Shown piece after piece: positions 1 through 6,793 of a stretch of DNA of 64,000 bases. Under the pieces are notes generated by a model. The model was not told the origin of the DNA. It made no database searches and was given only the letters and a program-made list of their open reading frames with translations. The stretch comes from a virus: positions 264 through 64,263 of the IMG/VR virus record IMGVR_UViG_3300048915_000044; one strand, given 5' to 3'. How positions within the stretch are numbered: the first letter of the stretch is position 1; each line of letters starts with the position of its first letter. The translations under genes and the position numbers were made by a program.

Positions 1-328
1 TGACGGTCAGGCGAGAGCTGGCGACCTTCGAATCATCCTCATGGCGCGACAGCGTGCCGGACTGCTCGACGACGGCAAACTTCGAAGTCGCTGGCCGGTA
101 GTAGCGCAGGACATGCAGCGGGTCTTCGCAGGCATGAAGGCCGCCAGAGCATGCCTGGACTTCGCCCTTGTGCTCGAACGTCTCGCCGACGGCGTACTGC
201 ATGCCTCGGCACTTCCAGTCCATGTCGAAGCCTTTGTACGAGACGATCGTCTCGGTGTGCTGGGGCACCGCGACTTCCGCGGCGGTCTTGCTCGTCTTCT
301 TGGCGGCTTTCGCCTTCGGTGCGGTCAT
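1..328 (-). CDS. DUF7666-like phage protein (runs off the left edge)
   Basis: Manual translation: MTAPKAK...YKGFDMDWKCRGMQYAVGETFEHKGEVQACSGGLHACEDPLHVLRYY...DDSKVASSRLT, a motif typical of this phage family. Not in the ORF track. Confidence 0.75.
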   Translation of the reverse strand, partial: MTAPKAKAAKKTSKTAAEVAVPQHTETIVSYKGFDMDWKCRGMQYAVGETFEHKGEVQACSGGLHACEDPLHVLRYYRPATSKFAVVEQSGTLSRHEDDSKVASSRLTV

Positions 329-379
329 GTCATTCCTTGGTAAGTAGAGAGGCCCTGCAGGGTGTGCGGCGATGGGGGG

Positions 380-742
380 TCAGTCCTTGCGCATCGACTC
401 GGCGAACGCGGACGCCATGCGCTCGGCCAGCTTGTCCATGTCGGCGGAGAGCACCTTGTCTGCGGTCATCCGAATGAGCTCGCGGATGCGCGCGGCCAGC
501 GCTTCGTCTTCCTTGAGCAGGCGGGCCGTTTCGGTGCGGGCCAGTTGCTCCACGGCCGACTCGAACGCGAGTTCGATGGGCGACTTCTTGCGATCCCAGG
601 AGTTGGTGCTGGGCGCCATCAATGCTTGGATGGCCTTTTCGAGGACGCTCGCCCGAACTTCAGGGGTGAGGACACCAAGCATTGCTTGGACGGTGGCTTC
701 GCGGAGGGCATCTCCGTCGAGTTTCAAGGTGATGTCGGTCAA
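380..742 (-). CDS. Hypothetical phage protein
   Basis: 120-aa ORF with GGAG RBS, in operon orientation. Confidence 0.7.
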   Translation of the reverse strand: MTDITLKLDGDALREATVQAMLGVLTPEVRASVLEKAIQALMAPSTNSWDRKKSPIELAFESAVEQLARTETARLLKEDEALAARIRELIRMTADKVLSADMDKLAERMASAFAESMRKD

Positions 743-753
743 TCTCTTCTCCT

Positions 754-930
754 TCAGGGGTGAGGCGCGCTGGCCGCTTGTTCGGCGTGGTGCGCCCAGG
801 TGTCGAGGAACGGCTCGCGCGCCGCTCGGTGCTTGTTGGCTGCGATCGCACCCATCACGGCCATGCCGAAGGTCGCGAGGTTGAAAGCGATCAGGGCGGC
901 GTAGAGAAGGCGGCGGCGGGTGAACTTCAT
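754..930 (-). CDS. Small membrane/exported peptide (58 aa)
   Basis: Manual translation MKFTRRRLLYAALIAFNLATFGMAVMGAIAA...; ATGA overlap with the upstream ORF. Confidence 0.65.
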   Translation of the reverse strand: MKFTRRRLLYAALIAFNLATFGMAVMGAIAANKHRAAREPFLDTWAHHAEQAASAPHP

Positions 931-1109
931 TTGGCGCAGTCCTTGGGCTCAGAGGACGTGCCGCAGAAGGGGCACTTGGGGTGGTAGGACAGGTACGACA
1001 GGCCGCAGGCAGGAGCGGGACAGCGAACGGTGGTTGCGCGAGCGGTCGGCGTGGGCGCGGGACGCTCGCGGCGCTCGCGGTAGTAGTCGGGGGTGCCTTT
1101 GGCAGTCAT
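927..1109 (-). CDS. Small zinc-ribbon protein
   Basis: CPAPAC...CPFC motifs; 4-nt overlaps with both neighbours. Confidence 0.65.
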   Translation of the reverse strand: MTAKGTPDYYRERRERPAPTPTARATTVRCPAPACGLSYLSYHPKCPFCGTSSEPKDCAK

Positions 1110-1693
1110 GCTTGGACTCCCTTGCGCGCGCGTTTTGATGGCAGAGAGAGCGCTCGCTCAACATCCCAGCCAGCCCGCAAGCGGCGCGAGAGCAGGTCAT
1201 AGTTGACGCCGAGTTGCCTAGCCCATTCCGCGAGGTGCAGAGTGCGGCCCTGGTATGTCAGCAAGGGGCCGGTTTCGTGTGATCCGCGCGTGAGAGCGCG
1301 ATCAAGTTCCCACCCAGCCCTGATTCGGTTCCACAGAGTCCCTGTTGGGATTCCAGCGCAGCGCGCCCACTCAGCAACGGTCTTGGACTCGCCTCGCCAC
1401 ACAAGGATGCGATTACTCGTCCGGTTGTTGTTCTGTTCCAGGCGGGTAGCCCACCGACAGTTGCCGGGGCCGTAGCCCTCCGAGTTCCGCAGCCGGTCAA
1501 GCGTATGCGCAGGTGTTGGGCACTCGCCCATGTCCTCCAGGAACGCTGGAAACTCTTCCCAGCGCGCGCAGACCTTGATGCCGCTGCCGCCGTACTCGGG
1601 ATAGTTGATCGCGTTGGGGTCATTGCAACGCTGGTTCATGGACTTCCAGCGCGCATAGGTCAGCGTACCGCTGAGACCATGGGTCTTTGCCAT
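1106..1693 (-). CDS. HNH homing-type endonuclease with C-terminal DNA-binding repeats
   Basis: HGLSGT.TY.RWKSMNQRC.DPN..NY..YGG.GIKVC.RW..F..FLEDMG...HTLDR..N..GY.PGNCRWAT..EQNNN; true start is the ATG at 1693 after AGGAG. Confidence 0.9.
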   Translation of the reverse strand: MAKTHGLSGTLTYARWKSMNQRCNDPNAINYPEYGGSGIKVCARWEEFPAFLEDMGECPTPAHTLDRLRNSEGYGPGNCRWATRLEQNNNRTSNRILVWRGESKTVAEWARCAGIPTGTLWNRIRAGWELDRALTRGSHETGPLLTYQGRTLHLAEWARQLGVNYDLLSRRLRAGWDVERALSLPSKRARKGVQA

Positions 1694-1748
1694 TCCGTGC
1701 TCCTGAACGAGACTGAGACCACTCAGCGCGTTTTCAAGCACGACGGGT

Positions 1749-1813
1749 GGGCGGGATGTTGAAAACCTGAGTTCAGTCAGGCAGGCAGCCTTACGGGTAG
1801 CCTCATCCCGCCC
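1749..1813 (-). ncRNA. c4-like antisense RNA (P1 c4 / P4 CI type)
   Basis: Closing stem GGGCGGGATG/CATCCCGCCC encloses CTGAACTCAGGTTTTCAA, which is complementary to sites at 1867-1887 and 1721-1738. Confidence 0.65.
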
Positions 1814-1899
1814 AAAACTAAAATGTTTGGACGTGACAAAGCCGCGCTGACGGGGCGGCATAACCGCTGAACTCATGACGTTTTCAAGCGTCTTTGGCG

Positions 1900-1928
1900 A
1901 GTGTATGCCTACGCGACGCAACGTGCAA
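1900..1928 (-). promoter_or_regulatory. Sigma70-like promoter for the c4-like RNA/HNH unit
   Basis: TTGCAC-N17-TACACT on the minus strand. Confidence 0.6.
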
Positions 1929-1980
1929 CCGTCGAGGGGCGCGACCAGATTCCAGCGCACGGGCATGAGGGCCTTGACCG

Positions 1981-2346
1981 TCATGCTGCAGGCGCCCTGT
2001 TGGCGGACTTGAGCCAGCCACCGGCTTGACTGCCGATGCTTCCGAGCAGCTCCATCGACTCAGCCCACAGCTTCGGTGCCGTCAGGTATCGCGCGTCATG
2101 GCAGACGCGCAGCAGCACCGTGACGGCGCGCTGCCGCTGGAGCAACTCCTGGATGTAGGCCGCCCGCACCTCGCGCTGCGAGGCGTTGGCGAGTGCCATC
2201 AGGTCGAGCATCTCGATGCAGTGCTGCATGATCTTCTCGCCCAGCAGCCGCTTGACGCTGCGCGGGAGCTGCTCCTGCACCTTCACCGCAAGGGCGAGCA
2301 GGCGCACGCCAGTACGATGGATCGGCAGTTGGTCGTGGATAGCCAT
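1981..2346 (-). CDS. avd: DGR accessory variability determinant (Avd, four-helix bundle)
   Basis: LPIHRTG..LL......QLPR..KR.LGEK....C.EML.L...AN...R...L.......G.QAGGWLKS pattern, directly downstream of two CLec targets. Confidence 0.88.
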   Translation of the reverse strand: MAIHDQLPIHRTGVRLLALAVKVQEQLPRSVKRLLGEKIMQHCIEMLDLMALANASQREVRAAYIQELLQRQRAVTVLLRVCHDARYLTAPKLWAESMELLGSIGSQAGGWLKSANRAPAA

Positions 2347-2378
2347 GTGGCAGGGCTCAATTCAAAGGATTGAAGGAC

Positions 2379-2825
2379 TCAGGGATTCAATCTGCGGAGG
2401 GCTCGCGCGCAGTGCTTGCAGTCGACGTAGTTCGCGTACTGGCTGCCGAGGCCGAAGTCCTGCATCCAGGCGCCCGAGCCGTTCTCATGCTTCTCGCTGG
2501 ACCAGTACCAGCAGTCCTGGAAGCCTGCCTTCGCGTTGGCGAAGAGCAGCGACTGCTCGCGGCGGGTGGGCAGCTCGCCGCCAGCCTTCGCCGCCCAGGC
2601 CTTGGCATCAGCCCAGGTCGCCTCGGTCTCGCCTGGCAGGAGCACCAAGTGGTGCGACGGCGTCCCGTCGTCGTTCAGGATCAGGCCGGCGTAGGTCTCG
2701 CCTTCGGCCAGGTCGATCTCGGCTTCGTCGATGGTGATGACGCGCGGCTTCGCGCGCTCGAACGCGACAACCTTCTCGTTCAGGCGTGCGACGTCGGCCT
2801 TGAGCTCTTCGATGGTGATGGTCAT
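2379..2825 (-). CDS. DUF1566 / C-type-lectin-fold DGR target protein 2
   Basis: TWADAKAWA..GGELPTRREQSLLFAN...WYWSSE...AW.Q.F..G.Q......ARA.R; C-terminal variable repeat. Confidence 0.9.
   Translation of the reverse strand: MTITIEELKADVARLNEKVVAFERAKPRVITIDEAEIDLAEGETYAGLILNDDGTPSHHLVLLPGETEATWADAKAWAAKAGGELPTRREQSLLFANAKAGFQDCWYWSSEKHENGSGAWMQDFGLGSQYANYVDCKHCARALRRLNP
2394..2480 (-). repeat. DGR variable repeat (VR) in target 2
   Basis: 87 nt; differs from 2867-2953 at 19 positions, all at codon positions 1-2. Confidence 0.85.
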
Positions 2826-2845
2826 GTGCGTGGCTCCTGGAAGGA

Positions 2846-3250
2846 TCAAAGGACCAAAGGAATCATGCGGACGGCTCGCGCGCAGCTCTTGCTGGTGACG
2901 TAGCCCGCGCTCTGGTAGCCGTAGCTGAAGTACTGCAACCAGGCGTACGAGCCGCTGTAGGCTTCCGACGTCCAGTGCCACTCGGGCTCGAACTGGGCCT
3001 TCGCGTTGGCGAAGAGCATGGCCGCGGCCGGGCGCGCCGGCAGCTCGCCTCCGACGCTCTCGGCCCACTTCTTGGCGTCGGCCCAGTTCAGCTCCTCGTC
3101 GGGCTTGTCGGCCAGGAGAACGACGGCGACATGCACGCCGCTGGGAAGCGTCAGAATGCCCTGGAACGTGCCGCCCTCGAGCGGCGAGCCGAGCGCCAGG
3201 GCGGCGACGGCCGCGAGCGCAAGGGGCTTGATTTCGGTCTTGGTGGTCAT
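2846..3250 (-). CDS. DUF1566 / C-type-lectin-fold DGR target protein 1
   Basis: NWADAKKWAESVGGELPAR...WHWTSE..YAWLQYFSYGYQ...ARAVR. Confidence 0.9.
   Translation of the reverse strand: MTTKTEIKPLALAAVAALALGSPLEGGTFQGILTLPSGVHVAVVLLADKPDEELNWADAKKWAESVGGELPARPAAAMLFANAKAQFEPEWHWTSEAYSGSYAWLQYFSYGYQSAGYVTSKSCARAVRMIPLVL
2867..2953 (-). repeat. DGR variable repeat (VR) in target 1
   Basis: Paralogous to 2394-2480; followed by a TCCTTT-rich tail, as is the other VR. Confidence 0.85.
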
Positions 3251-3276
3251 GGATGCCTTTCAGGCGTGGTGAGGAT

Positions 3277-3365
3277 TGGTGGGCGGCCCGGGCGCAACTC
3301 CGGGTTCTTGCTTACGCCAGGGAGGCGTGGCGCACTCGGTCAGCTCACGGCGCTTGCCGCCGCCC
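3277..3365 (-). ncRNA. tRNA-shaped element of unknown function
   Basis: GGGCGGC...GCCGCCC-A-CCA closing stem with a CCGG/CCGG hairpin just before it; no canonical TTCRA loop. Confidence 0.4.
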
Positions 3366-3378
3366 CGTTGTTGGTCTG

Positions 3379-3669
3379 TCAGATGAACATCGCGAGGCAG
3401 TCGTACTGCTCGTCGTAGCGCACGCCGCAGCGCGCCAGCTCGACGACCTGCTCCTGAGTGATGACTTCGGCCAGTGCCTCGCAGTCGGTAACGAGGTAGA
3501 TCTCGTCGTGCTCGGCTGCCAAGACCATGTCGTCGCTGCCGGGCGCGAGTTCGGAGAGCAGCAGAAACGCCGCGATGTCGGGCCTCGGATGGCGAGGGTT
3601 CTCGATGCGGTCGAACTGGATGTATTCGTCCTCGGCTGCCTCGAAGGCTCTCTGAAGATCAACGGTCAT
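3379..3669 (-). CDS. Acidic hypothetical phage protein
   Basis: 96-aa ORF with GGAG RBS. Confidence 0.75.
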   Translation of the reverse strand: MTVDLQRAFEAAEDEYIQFDRIENPRHPRPDIAAFLLLSELAPGSDDMVLAAEHDEIYLVTDCEALAEVITQEQVVELARCGVRYDEQYDCLAMFI

Positions 3670-3808
3670 GTGATGCTCTCCGGGGTAGAAAAGTGGCGGC
3701 GCCGTTGGGGTGTCGGGTTACGCTGATGGGCTCGGAAGGGGAGTGACGTCGCCCGCACAGTTGCTGCCGACACGGCGCCGCCGAAACTGGTTCGGTTGCG
3801 AAGTTGGT

Positions 3809-5422
3809 TTAGTCCCAGCGGTCGATCAGGTACTCCATCGGGACTGGGCCGCCATGGACGCGCACACTGATCGGCGAGTTCGAACCGGCGCTGATCTGCA
3901 AGCCGGCTGCATGTGGCTGGTCGAGACCCTGCATGTCAGCGTTGCGAGAGAACGACTCGATCACCGAGCGCATGCCGTGGAACTCGCTGCGAAGAATCTC
4001 GGGGAACAGCGCTGCGCCGGCCGAGCGAGTTTCTCGAGCATCGCGAACGACAAACGTCGCGGACTGGCCTTGGTGGCTCATGCCGCTGCCCCACATGGAG
4101 GGCTTGAGGGCAACGGCCGAGACCTCGTGGTACTTGTCGCCCAGCAGGCCGTATTGCGATGCCGGCGCGCCACCATTCCAGACGTACCACGACACCGGGT
4201 TGCGCGCGTCCTCGCGATCCCATTGCAGAATGGGCGGCGCCGAGGCATCCGCGGCGGTGACGAAGACGACCCAGTTCGACGAATGCGACGGCACCAGGAC
4301 ATCGATGCGTTCGGCGTTCGGCAGCACGGTACGCGAGAACTTGTCGAAGGTCATCGTCTGCGCCGGTACGCGCATGCTGGCCGGCATCGGATCGGCTCCC
4401 TTAGCCTTGAGGTGGCCGAACACGCCAGCCCTGGTCGGGTCGGAAGTGCGCGGCGCAGGCTTCCACAGCGCTTGCAATTCGTCCATGCGCGCAAGGCGGC
4501 GCGTCAACGCCCCGGCCGCACCGAGCTTCGCGAACGCGGCTTCTGCTGCGGCGATGGCGCCGGCACTTGGGGCGGACTGCGGGCGCTGGTATTGCAGCGG
4601 GTGCATTTTGGCAGCGAACTTGCGCGAGACATCGGCGAAGTCCAGGCCGGCGGCGATGTCCTCCAGCAGCGAGCCGATCATCGACGAGCGCGGGTGGCAG
4701 AAGCCGGCCGGCGCCGCGGCGATGCGGCGCCAGGTCAGGTTGCGGCGCAGCGCCTGGTTGCGGTTGTCGTCGCGGATGGCGATGAGGTCGCGCAGGAACT
4801 GGGCCGGGCCGATCACCTTCTCGGAACGATAAAGGGCGTCGGAGTTGAGCAGCTGCAGAGCTTGGTCGACCTGGGCGCCCGTGAAGTCGCCGAGCGCGCG
4901 CTGCATGTTGCGGTAGTCCTCGCGCTTCTCGGCCATCGATTGACCGGCAGTCAGCAGCGGATGCTTGTGGACCATCGTGATGGGCAGGGTTGCCGACAGG
5001 TGGCGCCAGATGCCCGTGACGGGTTGCCCCAAGGTCTTGTCGCCGGACTGGAATACACCCGTCACCTCGGCGCGACCGACTGCGTGCTGAAGGGCAATGA
5101 TCGAGGGAGCGCAGTCAGCATCCGCCTCGCCACCGCTCCACATAGCCGATGTGGCGACCCCGTTCTGGTCGATGAAGACGAGGCCACCGAAGCGCTCGAT
5201 GAAGTGCCGGCAGGCGTTGCAGTTGTGGTATTGCTGGTCGTGCGGCGCAAAGTGCCCGAGGTAGGTTTCCCACAGGCCCTCGGCGTTCGTGGTGAACAGA
5301 GCTCCATGCTCCGCCGCCATGGCGCTGAACCGGGCGCTCATGCGCGCAAGGAAGGCGTCATAGGAGGGGTCGTCGTGGTTGCCGTGTTGTCGGTCGGCTT
5401 CGGAGGTGAGGACTGCGGGCAT
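3809..5422 (-). CDS. Conserved 537-aa phage protein of unknown function
   Basis: Long ORF with AGGAG RBS; HNCNACRHF metal-binding-like motif. Confidence 0.85.
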   Translation of the reverse strand: MPAVLTSEADRQHGNHDDPSYDAFLARMSARFSAMAAEHGALFTTNAEGLWETYLGHFAPHDQQYHNCNACRHFIERFGGLVFIDQNGVATSAMWSGGEADADCAPSIIALQHAVGRAEVTGVFQSGDKTLGQPVTGIWRHLSATLPITMVHKHPLLTAGQSMAEKREDYRNMQRALGDFTGAQVDQALQLLNSDALYRSEKVIGPAQFLRDLIAIRDDNRNQALRRNLTWRRIAAAPAGFCHPRSSMIGSLLEDIAAGLDFADVSRKFAAKMHPLQYQRPQSAPSAGAIAAAEAAFAKLGAAGALTRRLARMDELQALWKPAPRTSDPTRAGVFGHLKAKGADPMPASMRVPAQTMTFDKFSRTVLPNAERIDVLVPSHSSNWVVFVTAADASAPPILQWDREDARNPVSWYVWNGGAPASQYGLLGDKYHEVSAVALKPSMWGSGMSHQGQSATFVVRDARETRSAGAALFPEILRSEFHGMRSVIESFSRNADMQGLDQPHAAGLQISAGSNSPISVRVHGGPVPMEYLIDRWD

Positions 5423-5449
5423 TCGATTCTCCTGGGGTGGGGGGATGGA

Positions 5450-6793
5450 TCAGGTCGCGACGGTCTCGCGCGCCTCGTCGGTCAGGCGCCGCAAGGTGCC
5501 CCACCATTCGGGGCTCGGCTTCGGGTGCGCGGGAAAGCGACCGGCGAAGGCTTCGTCGATGTGCGCCAGCAGGGCGGACAGCGCATCGGCGGCGGACGGT
5601 TCGGGTTCGGCGAACGTGACCGGCCCCGGGGTGGGATGCAGCACGCCGGTCGACACGGCCATGCGGCCGGTGTAGGCCACCGGTTCTTCGGCGGCCGGCA
5701 GCGTCCAGGGCTTGGTGGCGATGTCATCCATGTCGGCGGCGGGTGTAGCCTCGTAGGCATCCGCGATCACCTCGGCCGGCGTGGCGTCGGCGGCGACCTG
5801 CAGCGCTCCGGCCGCAGCCTTTTGCGCCAGGCGGTTGGCTTCGATGATCCGTTTCAGGTCGGCATCTTTTGCGGCCTGCGCTTCGGCCTGCTGGCGGCCG
5901 AGCTCGGCTGACGCCGCTTCTCGGGCAGCCTTCGCTTCGGCGTCGCGCTGGGCCTGCGCCGCAGCCTCGACCCGGTCTGCCTCGGCCTTCTCCGCCGCCG
6001 CGATGACCGCCAGCTTGCGATCGATCTCCGCTTGCTTCTCAGCGAGAGCGCGCTCCTTCTCCGCGAGTTCGGCGGCGACGCGCTCGTTCTCGATGCGCTG
6101 GGCTTCGCGGGCGGCGGCTTCGTCCTCGGCGGTCTTGGTGCTGCTGAAAAGCGCCTGTAGTGCTTCGAGGGTCTGCTCCTTCTGCATCTCGGCGCCGACG
6201 GCGAACTCTTCCCACTGCTCCGGGATGGTGTCGATGCCCGACACGCCATTGATGATGGTCAGGATCTGCGCCGAGGTCTTGCCCTGCGCCTGGCCGACGT
6301 AGCTGGCCAGCTTGGCGATGTTCTCGCGGTGGACGGCGACGCGGGCCGCTTCCTTGGCCTCGCGCTCGGCCTTCTCGGCAGCGAGGTCGGCGTCGCGCGC
6401 TTCGATTTGCGGCGTGATGAGCTTCTCGGCCTCGGCGAACCCGGCCTCGATGGACTCCAGGCGGGCGCCTACGGCCTTGCTGACCGCCGTGAGCTTGGCC
6501 TTGAGGCCCTTGTTGACCTTGCGAGCCTCGGCGAGCGGGGCGTTGATGAGCCGCTCGCGCAGGGACTTGGCCTCGGCCAGCTTCGTCGCCGTCGACAGGT
6601 CGTGAACGACACCGGTCAGCTTCTGGCGGGCGGTTTGCAGCGCCACGTTGGACACGTCGAAGTGGGCCAGTGCGATCTTCTGCAGGTCGATGTCCTCGAT
6701 GGCGAGGTCGGCGGCCTTGGTGGTGGCGACGGACGACTGCGGCGCGGCGGTCTCGGGTTCGTCGAGGGTCGGGAAGATGTCGAAGTCGGACAT
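5450..6793 (-). CDS. Coiled-coil protein of the recombination module
   Basis: A/E/K-rich heptad region; next to the exonuclease. Confidence 0.8.
   Translation of the reverse strand: MSDFDIFPTLDEPETAAPQSSVATTKAADLAIEDIDLQKIALAHFDVSNVALQTARQKLTGVVHDLSTATKLAEAKSLRERLINAPLAEARKVNKGLKAKLTAVSKAVGARLESIEAGFAEAEKLITPQIEARDADLAAEKAEREAKEAARVAVHRENIAKLASYVGQAQGKTSAQILTIINGVSGIDTIPEQWEEFAVGAEMQKEQTLEALQALFSSTKTAEDEAAAREAQRIENERVAAELAEKERALAEKQAEIDRKLAVIAAAEKAEADRVEAAAQAQRDAEAKAAREAASAELGRQQAEAQAAKDADLKRIIEANRLAQKAAAGALQVAADATPAEVIADAYEATPAADMDDIATKPWTLPAAEEPVAYTGRMAVSTGVLHPTPGPVTFAEPEPSAADALSALLAHIDEAFAGRFPAHPKPSPEWWGTLRRLTDEARETVAT

Follow-up and report, generated by a model that had tools for sequence, protein, structure and literature searches.

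Diversity-generating retroelements (DGRs) are usually catalogued by their reverse transcriptase (RT), so that loci such as the one described here escape notice; how DGRs come to be lost is itself poorly known. In DGRs of the type found in Bordetella phage BPP-1, the components are a target gene, the accessory gene avd, a template repeat (TR) and the RT gene: the target proteins are C-type-lectin-like and carry a variable repeat (VR) at their C-terminal end, avd (encoding a four-helix bundle) follows directly after the targets, sequence differences are limited to adenine-derived positions (NNC codons) and the 3' end of the VR is conserved and GC-rich. Two other kinds of system are relevant here. 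Free-standing phage homing endonuclease genes, such as the T4 seg and mob genes and those for the I-HmuI-type HNH enzymes, typically form clades associated with a single type of site, while their relatives are dispersed over other locations, and the immI region of phages P1 and P7 (c4 antisense RNA, icd and ant; Rfam families C4, RF01695, and c4-a1b1, RF03163) features a stem-closed RNA whose loop is complementary to a site upstream and to another ahead of the ribosome-binding site (RBS) of the downstream gene. In this report, we describe a locus in a 64,000-nucleotide stretch of viral DNA (IMG/VR record IMGVR_UViG_3300048915_000044, hereafter the window) that combines these known things, a DGR remnant and a free-standing HNH gene under what resembles a c4-like switch. 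In our judgement the locus is probably a decayed, non-autonomous DGR whose TR and RT were replaced by a cassette and whose VRs are now frozen.

The window comprises bases 264-64263 of a 73,878-base IMG/VR contig. All the genes discussed lie on its minus strand and coordinates are window positions unless otherwise stated. The features of the DGR remnant, in the order of transcription, are as follows.

2846-3250, minus strand: target1, DGR target gene, 134 aa, intact open reading frame (ORF), C-type-lectin/Lcl_C-like C-terminus
2866-2954, minus strand: VR1, near the 3' end of target1, with the conserved 3' end GCGCGAGCCGTCCGCA
2379-2825, minus strand: target2, DGR target gene, 148 aa, intact ORF, Lcl_C-like (weak match, E 0.0042)
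2393-2481, minus strand: VR2, near the 3' end of target2, with one G-to-C change (CTC for GTC) in the conserved 3' end
1981-2346, minus strand: avd, 121 aa, intact, match to PF22296 (bAvd) at 1.6e-08
1935-1997, minus strand: remnant of the RT-15 RNA (Rfam RF03018), approximately the first 65 of 192 positions, overlapping the avd stop codon

The likeness to the BPP-1 type extends to each of the features of targets, avd and VRs listed above for those elements; the differences are that the window has neither TR nor RT, retains only about 65 nt of the RNA region that follows avd and carries two small targets. ORF calls and profile matches bear out the gene order proposed in a first-pass annotation of the sequence (target1, target2, avd and then an HNH module, all on the minus strand). 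Target1, which has a weak match to Lcl_C (E 0.0099) and also matches phrog_4245, is 90% identical at the nucleotide level to the first target of an RT-bearing relative known from a metagenome contig (L101), and target2 is homologous to the second target of L101 and of a further relative, L001. The avd gene adjoins the targets, as expected of the DGR accessory gene. Its product matches phrog_3206 ('Avd protein of DGR') at 9e-21, with bAvd and NF033474 scoring below their cut-offs (35.4 bits against 40, and 4e-10 with 39.9 bits against 80, respectively), and is 98% identical to the Avd proteins that precede TR and RT in L001 and L101.

VR1 and VR2 are identical at 70 of 89 bases (79%), the remainder of the two target genes being far more diverged. 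The 19 differences affect 13 codons, 12 of them with C as the third base, and every one is at the first or second codon position. Substitutions in the target VRs are thus restricted to positions of the template-adenine type, which is the adenine-mutagenesis pattern, and at most of the positions where VR1 and VR2 differ the TRs of relatives have AAC codons. VR1 matches the TRs of L101 and L001, and both VRs show the same non-adenine differences from those TRs, which argues that both were last written from a now-lost TR of this lineage. The CTC change at the 3' end of VR2 is also present in VR2 of L101, indicating that it was inherited rather than being a sign of decay. A short repeated motif (family D4) is conserved just after the VRs; DNA folding of the 60-68 nt after each VR gave hairpins no better than those of shuffled sequences (z -0.45 to +0.46).

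The 46 nt that follow avd (the 'about 50 nt' of the first-pass annotation), together with the last bases of avd itself, correspond to the 5' part of the RT-15 motif. At 53.3 bits the match falls short of the 82-bit gathering threshold, and its alignment is convincing over no more than roughly positions 1-65; relatives overall score 104-181 bits, and the full motif scores 147-181 bits in RT-bearing relatives. The function of RT-15, apart from its occurrence near RT genes, was previously open (PMC5737381). In this DGR clade, RT-15 consistently occupies the interval that begins with the final bases of avd and ends where the TR starts (L001 5302-5490, L005 10350-10541, L101 5350-5538, L104 526-717 and others), so that an Rfam family whose function was open can now be placed as the avd-to-TR segment of the clade. 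In L001 (5193-6665) the RT frame is open from an ATG overlapping the avd stop codon (ATGA), through RT-15 and the TR, and into the RT domain, and the same is true of L005; in these two relatives, the ones that were read closely, the RT may be translated through its own template region.

A complete autonomous DGR would possess a DGR-clade RT and a TR matching its VRs. The genome to which the window belongs has neither; the first-pass annotation had found neither in the window. No RVT_1 match was found in the whole 73.9-kb closed contig, a tblastn search of the contig with the RT of a relative left the RT domain unmatched (only 57 residues overlapping avd and RT-15 were found), and a search of both strands of the 73,878 bases, requiring agreement at 60% or more of the invariant VR positions, gave no further copy of the repeat beyond the two VRs. 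Searches with exact VR/TR patterns were also empty, both in IMG/VR (87-nt and 48-nt patterns) and in metagenome contigs (48-nt pattern).

A TR and RT could in principle lie elsewhere in the same phage genome, either outside the window or in an unassembled part of it, or the joint between avd and the HNH module could be an assembly chimera. The IMG/VR record might encourage the former view, as it is classed as linear with a CheckV completeness of 89%. The ends of the contig tell otherwise: within a 27-nt tandem repeat, the 161 bases at its start overlap the 124 at its end with 97-99% identity, and the two ends code for positions 7-95 and 249-309 of a single 312-position family, phrog_4433. One phrog_4433 protein is therefore split across two overlapping ends and the genome closes through its gene, so that the record listed as linear and 89% complete is a closed and essentially complete genome with nothing hidden beyond the left edge of the window. 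This refutes the suggestion of the first-pass annotation that TR and RT had been separated beyond that edge. In addition, a complete 73.2-kb phage (G002) that is syntenic with the contig over most of its length has a single DGR, at this very locus, with avd, RT-15, TR and RT. As for a chimera, the joint at 1935 is bridged by contigs in two independent sequencing runs (see below). We regard an overlooked or misassembled TR–RT as barely credible. The contig break itself falls inside a GAATASGNY peptide repeat of the DUF7666/phrog_4433 gene (window 1-328; L120 9557-9879), the N-terminal part of the gene being at the left end of the contig and the C-terminal part at the right.

What occupies the place of TR and RT can be seen by comparison with relatives, which Avd searches identified in IMG/VR, in metagenome contigs and in two genomes. 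In most of the relatives' loci that are long enough to show the order, avd is followed by the RT-15 RNA, the TR and the RT. Nucleotide homology between the window and nearly all of these relatives ends at 1931-1935, and the run of exact identity with L101 ends at 1935. Two features of the window define the segment that follows.

1112-1934, minus strand: replacement cassette, 823 nt, in place of the rest of RT-15, the TR and the RT of L101
927-1109, minus strand: 60-aa gene of the right flank, its ATG overlapping the HNH stop codon (GCATGA), with a homologue that overlaps the RT stop codon likewise in L101

On the left flank, window 3365-1935 corresponds to L101 3969-5412 at 90.4% identity, and on the right flank, window 1111-769 corresponds to L101 6716-7058 at 94.5% identity. 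Between the flanks L101 has the rest of RT-15, the TR (5535-5623) and the RT (to 6709). The 1303 nt of L101 5413-6715 thus correspond to the 823 nt of window 1112-1934: between homologous flanks that are 90-94% identical, the window has HNH where L101 has RT-15, TR and RT. The cassette interior has no match in any avd-bearing relative. At the right junction, the RT of L101 and the HNH gene of the window both end in GCA-TGA on the ATG of the same 60-aa gene, so that the stop/start overlap with that gene has been preserved. That the gene after RT in L101 is the gene after HNH in the window also counts against a TR and RT displaced to the left. The loss of this DGR core can therefore be read base by base against a relative that keeps it. 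The comparison of relatives with TR–RT and c4–HNH after avd, which the first-pass annotation had proposed, places TR–RT at this position in both L101 and G002, and it supports the first of the three options offered there, namely that a cassette replaced TR–RT and froze the last variants.

On this basis, the ancestor would have possessed both targets, avd, the RT-15 RNA, a TR and an RT, both VRs being rewritten from the one TR. Allelic replacement then removed RT-15 from about position 65 through to the penultimate codon of the RT, and introduced an 823-nt module consisting of a probable promoter, a c4-like antisense RNA between two complementary sites and a free-standing HNH gene. With no TR or RT the VRs can no longer be rewritten, and so would be frozen in their last state. 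In L101, the VRs (4373-4475 and 4852-4954) are one codon longer than the TR (5535-5623), having 22 rather than 21 codons between GGCTCG and TGCGCG; it seems either that the TR of L101 has lost one AAC since the last homing event or that the contig mixes variants.

To look at the locus in other samples, Logan contigs from four root metagenomes (runs X1-X4, X1 being the likely source run) were aligned to window 1-6000. In X1, a contig over 981-3337 spans the joint at 1935. So does one in the independent run X2, which covers 1824-2864 (the joint, avd and VR2) and shows zero differences from the window. In X3, contigs covering 1470-1962 and 2859-3070 (the latter including VR1) likewise show zero differences. 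No variant is listed anywhere within 1100-3300 in the contigs of the four metagenomes. Each VR is thus found unchanged in a contig from one further sample, identical readings that are supportive of frozen VRs, if not conclusive. If frozen they are, the locus would supply natural frozen VR alleles, and an Avd without an RT, with which to study roles of Avd or of the targets beyond retrohoming.

These observations bear on another of the options raised by the first-pass annotation, that of a satellite DGR in which avd and competent VRs are kept and the TR and RT of the host or of a co-infecting relative rewrite the VRs in trans. Such an arrangement would sit well with the integrity of avd and both targets, with the retention of the conserved VR 3' end and with the nature of the changes in avd unique to the window lineage (in comparison with L101 and L001), of which five are synonymous and none non-synonymous. 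RT-bearing related phages also occur in similar rhizosphere and soil habitats. Against this, neither IMG/VR nor the metagenome contig collection yielded DNA matching the invariant VR positions, and homing from the TRs of the nearest relatives would have overwritten several non-adenine positions at which those TRs and both VRs disagree. The VRs were unchanged in the further samples (VR2 in X2 and VR1 in X3), and the TR–RT segment of L101 turned up in a different rhizosphere run (X6) but in none of runs X1-X4. Rewriting in trans is, in our view, very unlikely.

Returning to the cassette, its own features are as follows.

1900-1928, minus strand: candidate promoter of the cassette, with TTGCAC and TACACT separated by 17 nt, starting 6 nt in from the left breakpoint
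1867-1888, minus strand: upstream complementary site (a1/b1 counterpart), 8 + 9 nt complementary to the RNA loop (approximately 1758-1776)
1742-1812, minus strand: c4-like stem-closed small RNA, folding into a closing stem and two hairpins, with a sub-threshold match to sRNA-Xcc1
1721-1738, minus strand: downstream complementary site (a2/b2 counterpart), 8 + 6 nt complementary to the loop of the RNA, shortly ahead of the HNH RBS
1106-1693, minus strand: free-standing HNH endonuclease gene, 195 aa, with its ATG at 1693 behind AGGAG (approximately 1700-1704)

The promoter, the c4-like RNA and the HNH gene had been proposed by the first-pass annotation. The promoter at 1900-1928 was missed by a scan with sigma-70 promoter and terminator consensus sequences, which found no promoter in 900-3500 and placed this element below threshold; a similar layout (-35 element, 17 nt, TACACT) is nonetheless found at the aligned position in two homologous cassettes (L116 and L117, from a reading of the alignment by eye), and the element may be regarded as a candidate promoter. 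The c4-like RNA is not recognised as such by the Rfam model: in the 311-nt region, C4 (RF01695, gathering cut-off 45 bits) gave no match even at E = 10, and the 1742-1812 RNA matches only sRNA-Xcc1, at 33.3 bits against a cut-off of 53 (a weak nadA match also being present in the region). What stands is the layout. The predicted loop is complementary both to the upstream site and to the site at the HNH RBS, as in immI, and the 10-mer CTTGAAAACG occurs only twice in the 64 kb, once in each complementary site (the second copy at 1729-1738), where 0.08 occurrences would be expected. In the homologous cassettes of L115, L116 and L117, C4 RNAs are found above the Rfam cut-off (58.8-60.9 bits) and L115 and L116 also have a P22_AR_N antirepressor gene, again as in immI. 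The window differs from P1 and P7 in that its RNA has only the sub-threshold sRNA-Xcc1 match, there is no icd or ant and the gene that would be regulated encodes an HNH endonuclease.

The HNH protein belongs to phrog_3377 ('HNH endonuclease', 3e-60) and consists of an HNH domain followed by two repeated helix-turn-helix-like modules at the C-terminus. An H...N...N motif is present in residues ~60-95, with N70, N78 and N90 nearly invariant. No significant match was obtained to Pfam, NCBIfam or PDB sequences, and a Foldseek search of the PDB returned nothing below E 0.1. The AlphaFold2 model (predicted local distance difference test, pLDDT, 89) finds its closest structural counterpart in PacI, itself an HNH enzyme (Z 6.2, 79 residues within 2-94), a top rank that came only from the VIA-align wide structure search, and the C-terminal repeats show a weak structural likeness to the DNA-binding parts of I-TevI and I-HmuI. 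With moderate confidence, then, the profile and the predicted fold point to a recognisable catalytic core. A longer ORF of 292 aa (1106-1984) starts at an ATG (1982-1984) overlapping the avd stop codon, the counterpart of the one that opens the RT frame in L001 and L005, and runs in frame into HNH, and was considered as a possible fusion protein. It was set aside: homologues of HNH are 189-222 aa in length, HNH has an AGGAG and ATG of its own, and by our own estimate an open stretch of that length would arise by chance in ~7% of cases at this G+C content.

As with free-standing homing genes generally, the cassette comprises a small HNH gene with helix-turn-helix DNA-binding modules and is found in one genome but not in a relative whose flanking sequences are nearly the same. 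It differs from them in that HNH lies neither between two intact genes nor in an intron and instead replaces a functional retroelement of 1.3 kb, in having its own c4-like antisense RNA control region, and in that cleavage and homing are putative here. The likeness extends to the distribution of its relatives, the nearest of which lie beside the same kind of locus while distant homologues lie elsewhere. There are 556 HNH homologues at E <= 1e-20, of which four are 61-67% identical to the window protein and the rest 60% or less; the window protein and these four form one clade with 99/96 support. In the window, the left junction lies at RT-15 position ~65. In L119, the end of a target is followed by avd, RT-15 to position ~135 (104.5 bits) and then HNH, with no TR or RT. 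In L117, a target end and ~50 codons of avd precede a block of c4-a1b1, isrK-like and C4 RNAs (C4 58.8 bits), after which comes HNH. In L115 and L116, a C4 RNA (60.9 bits) is followed by a P22_AR_N antirepressor gene and then HNH; L116 has VR-bearing Lcl_C-like targets upstream, with the same NNC-type differences, and reading its sequence reveals a small ORF between the C4 RNA and the antirepressor gene, whilst L115 has an integrase downstream. L118 has too little upstream sequence for its context to be seen. All four members with upstream context (the window included, and L115/L116 taken as one) therefore adjoin an RT-less DGR remnant, each with a different left junction.

Beyond the clade, the association disappears. 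None of the 79 IMG/VR loci with more distant HNH homologues (up to 56% identity) has avd or RT within 6 kb, nor does any have the non-coding region 1694-1935, and the three next-tier homologues (44-48% identical) lie in a baseplate module or in unrelated early regions. Conversely, the window's HNH occurs in none of ~20 avd-bearing loci or genomes and in none of the RT-bearing relatives.

Two observations on these loci can be added. L115 (60-262), L116 (1650-1852) and L117 (259-459) each contain a complete immI-like block (c4-a1b1, isrK-like RNA and C4 RNA) before the antirepressor and/or HNH gene, and HNH in these three loci would thus be either a passenger of, or a regulated gene in, a c4-controlled operon. 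In L116 (770-1600), runs of N lie beside three VR-like copies, two of which have identical upstream sequence and differ at NNC codons. These copies may reflect VR heterogeneity in the sample, although the contig shows no avd, TR or RT; an exact-pattern search for the L116 VR family found nothing.

Taken together, the gene content and distribution of the cassette suggest a homing-type mobile element with a preference for DGR cores. Alleles with RT-15, TR and RT still in place would be cleaved by the enzyme, and a cassette-bearing genome would serve as the template for their repair, so that the cassette is copied into them. Carried further, the c4-RNA-controlled HNH clade might be a DGR parasite that recognises the conserved RT-15/TR/RT DNA, homes into it and deletes template and RT, so that hypermutation is switched off whilst the targets and often avd survive, the window being one of at least four such events. 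This proposal is tentative and we would not yet favour it outright; the association between the HNH clade and DGR remnants is still a correlation drawn from few short contigs. If it is true that an HNH cassette seeks out DGR cores, phage genomes would be the site of a new type of conflict, one in which both parties are mobile or semi-mobile elements.

A simpler history would involve a single old replacement, inherited vertically, with later deletions trimming RT-15 and avd, recombination with RT-bearing relatives keeping the flanks similar and the endonuclease playing no part. An identity of only 61-67% between the HNH protein of the window and those of its clade does suggest age, and the genomes are mosaic, homology to L101 and to another relative, G001, ending on both sides of the DGR block. 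DGR cores also decay where there is no HNH gene. A complete 44-kb phage with terminal repeats (G005, locus L005) keeps intact targets, avd, a full RT-15 and the TR, but ~225 aa are missing from within its RT, which is also frameshifted and has lost the YVDD region (L005 10640-11060). L104 keeps avd and RT-15 and has no RT, its TR being cut after ~50 nt (717-811), with unrelated small genes, a helix-turn-helix protein and an integrase beyond the cut. Both resemble the window in that the targets, avd and RT-15 have outlasted the destruction of the RT, and differ from it in that G005 keeps its TR with part of the RT deleted, L104 is cut within the TR and neither has the HNH cassette; window, G005 and L104 are best read as three different routes of RT loss in one DGR clade.

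Other aspects of the junctions fit a single replacement poorly. A reading of the alignment puts the left ends of the cassette in the window and in L117 no more than ~10 nt apart in cassette coordinates, while the DGR side differs (RT-15 position ~65 as opposed to avd codon ~50), a pattern suggestive of a discrete module joined on separate occasions and not of erosion from one side. L116 and L117 have the C4 module and HNH gene in common and share neither flank. Furthermore, the flanks of the window are 90-94% identical to those of an RT-bearing genome, as against ~65% nucleotide identity between its HNH gene and those of other clade members. For these reasons we consider a single old replacement, with no part for the endonuclease, rather unlikely.

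Several points weigh against the interpretation of the window as a DGR whose core was displaced by a homing cassette and whose VRs are frozen. The purifying selection evident in avd would suit a very recent loss and would equally suit a retained role, and cannot separate the two. Low-level VR variation is possible, given that the sample contigs are only 2-10x deep and that rare variants are dropped in contigs. The part played by HNH as the cause of the replacement is one that we infer, its endonuclease activity and target site both being putative, and one old replacement followed by erosion towards the targets and recombination in the flanks could also give the four junctions. Finally, the clade has five members only, of which L118 is uninformative, and the contexts come from short metagenome contigs. 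In our literature searches, a connection between homing endonucleases and the loss of DGRs was nowhere reported, and no direct precedent was found either for orphan or decayed DGRs or for homing endonucleases in DGRs.

Some minor observations concern the remainder of the genome. A tblastx comparison found that the part of the window below 1935 and the last 10 kb of the contig share nothing with the syntenic relative G002, this part of the genome being simply variable. A gene resembling DNA cytosine methyltransferases (phrog_363, with FAGxGG and GFPCQ motifs) lies directly after the phrog_4433 gene at the right-hand end of the contig, at L120 8435-9133 (contig 72434-73132). A 120-aa gene in the window (380-742; region 380-763) is absent from L101. 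Contigs from X1 and X4 bypass this gene, joining 379 to 764 via 23 other letters, which indicates that a variant lacking the 120-aa gene coexists in the same samples.

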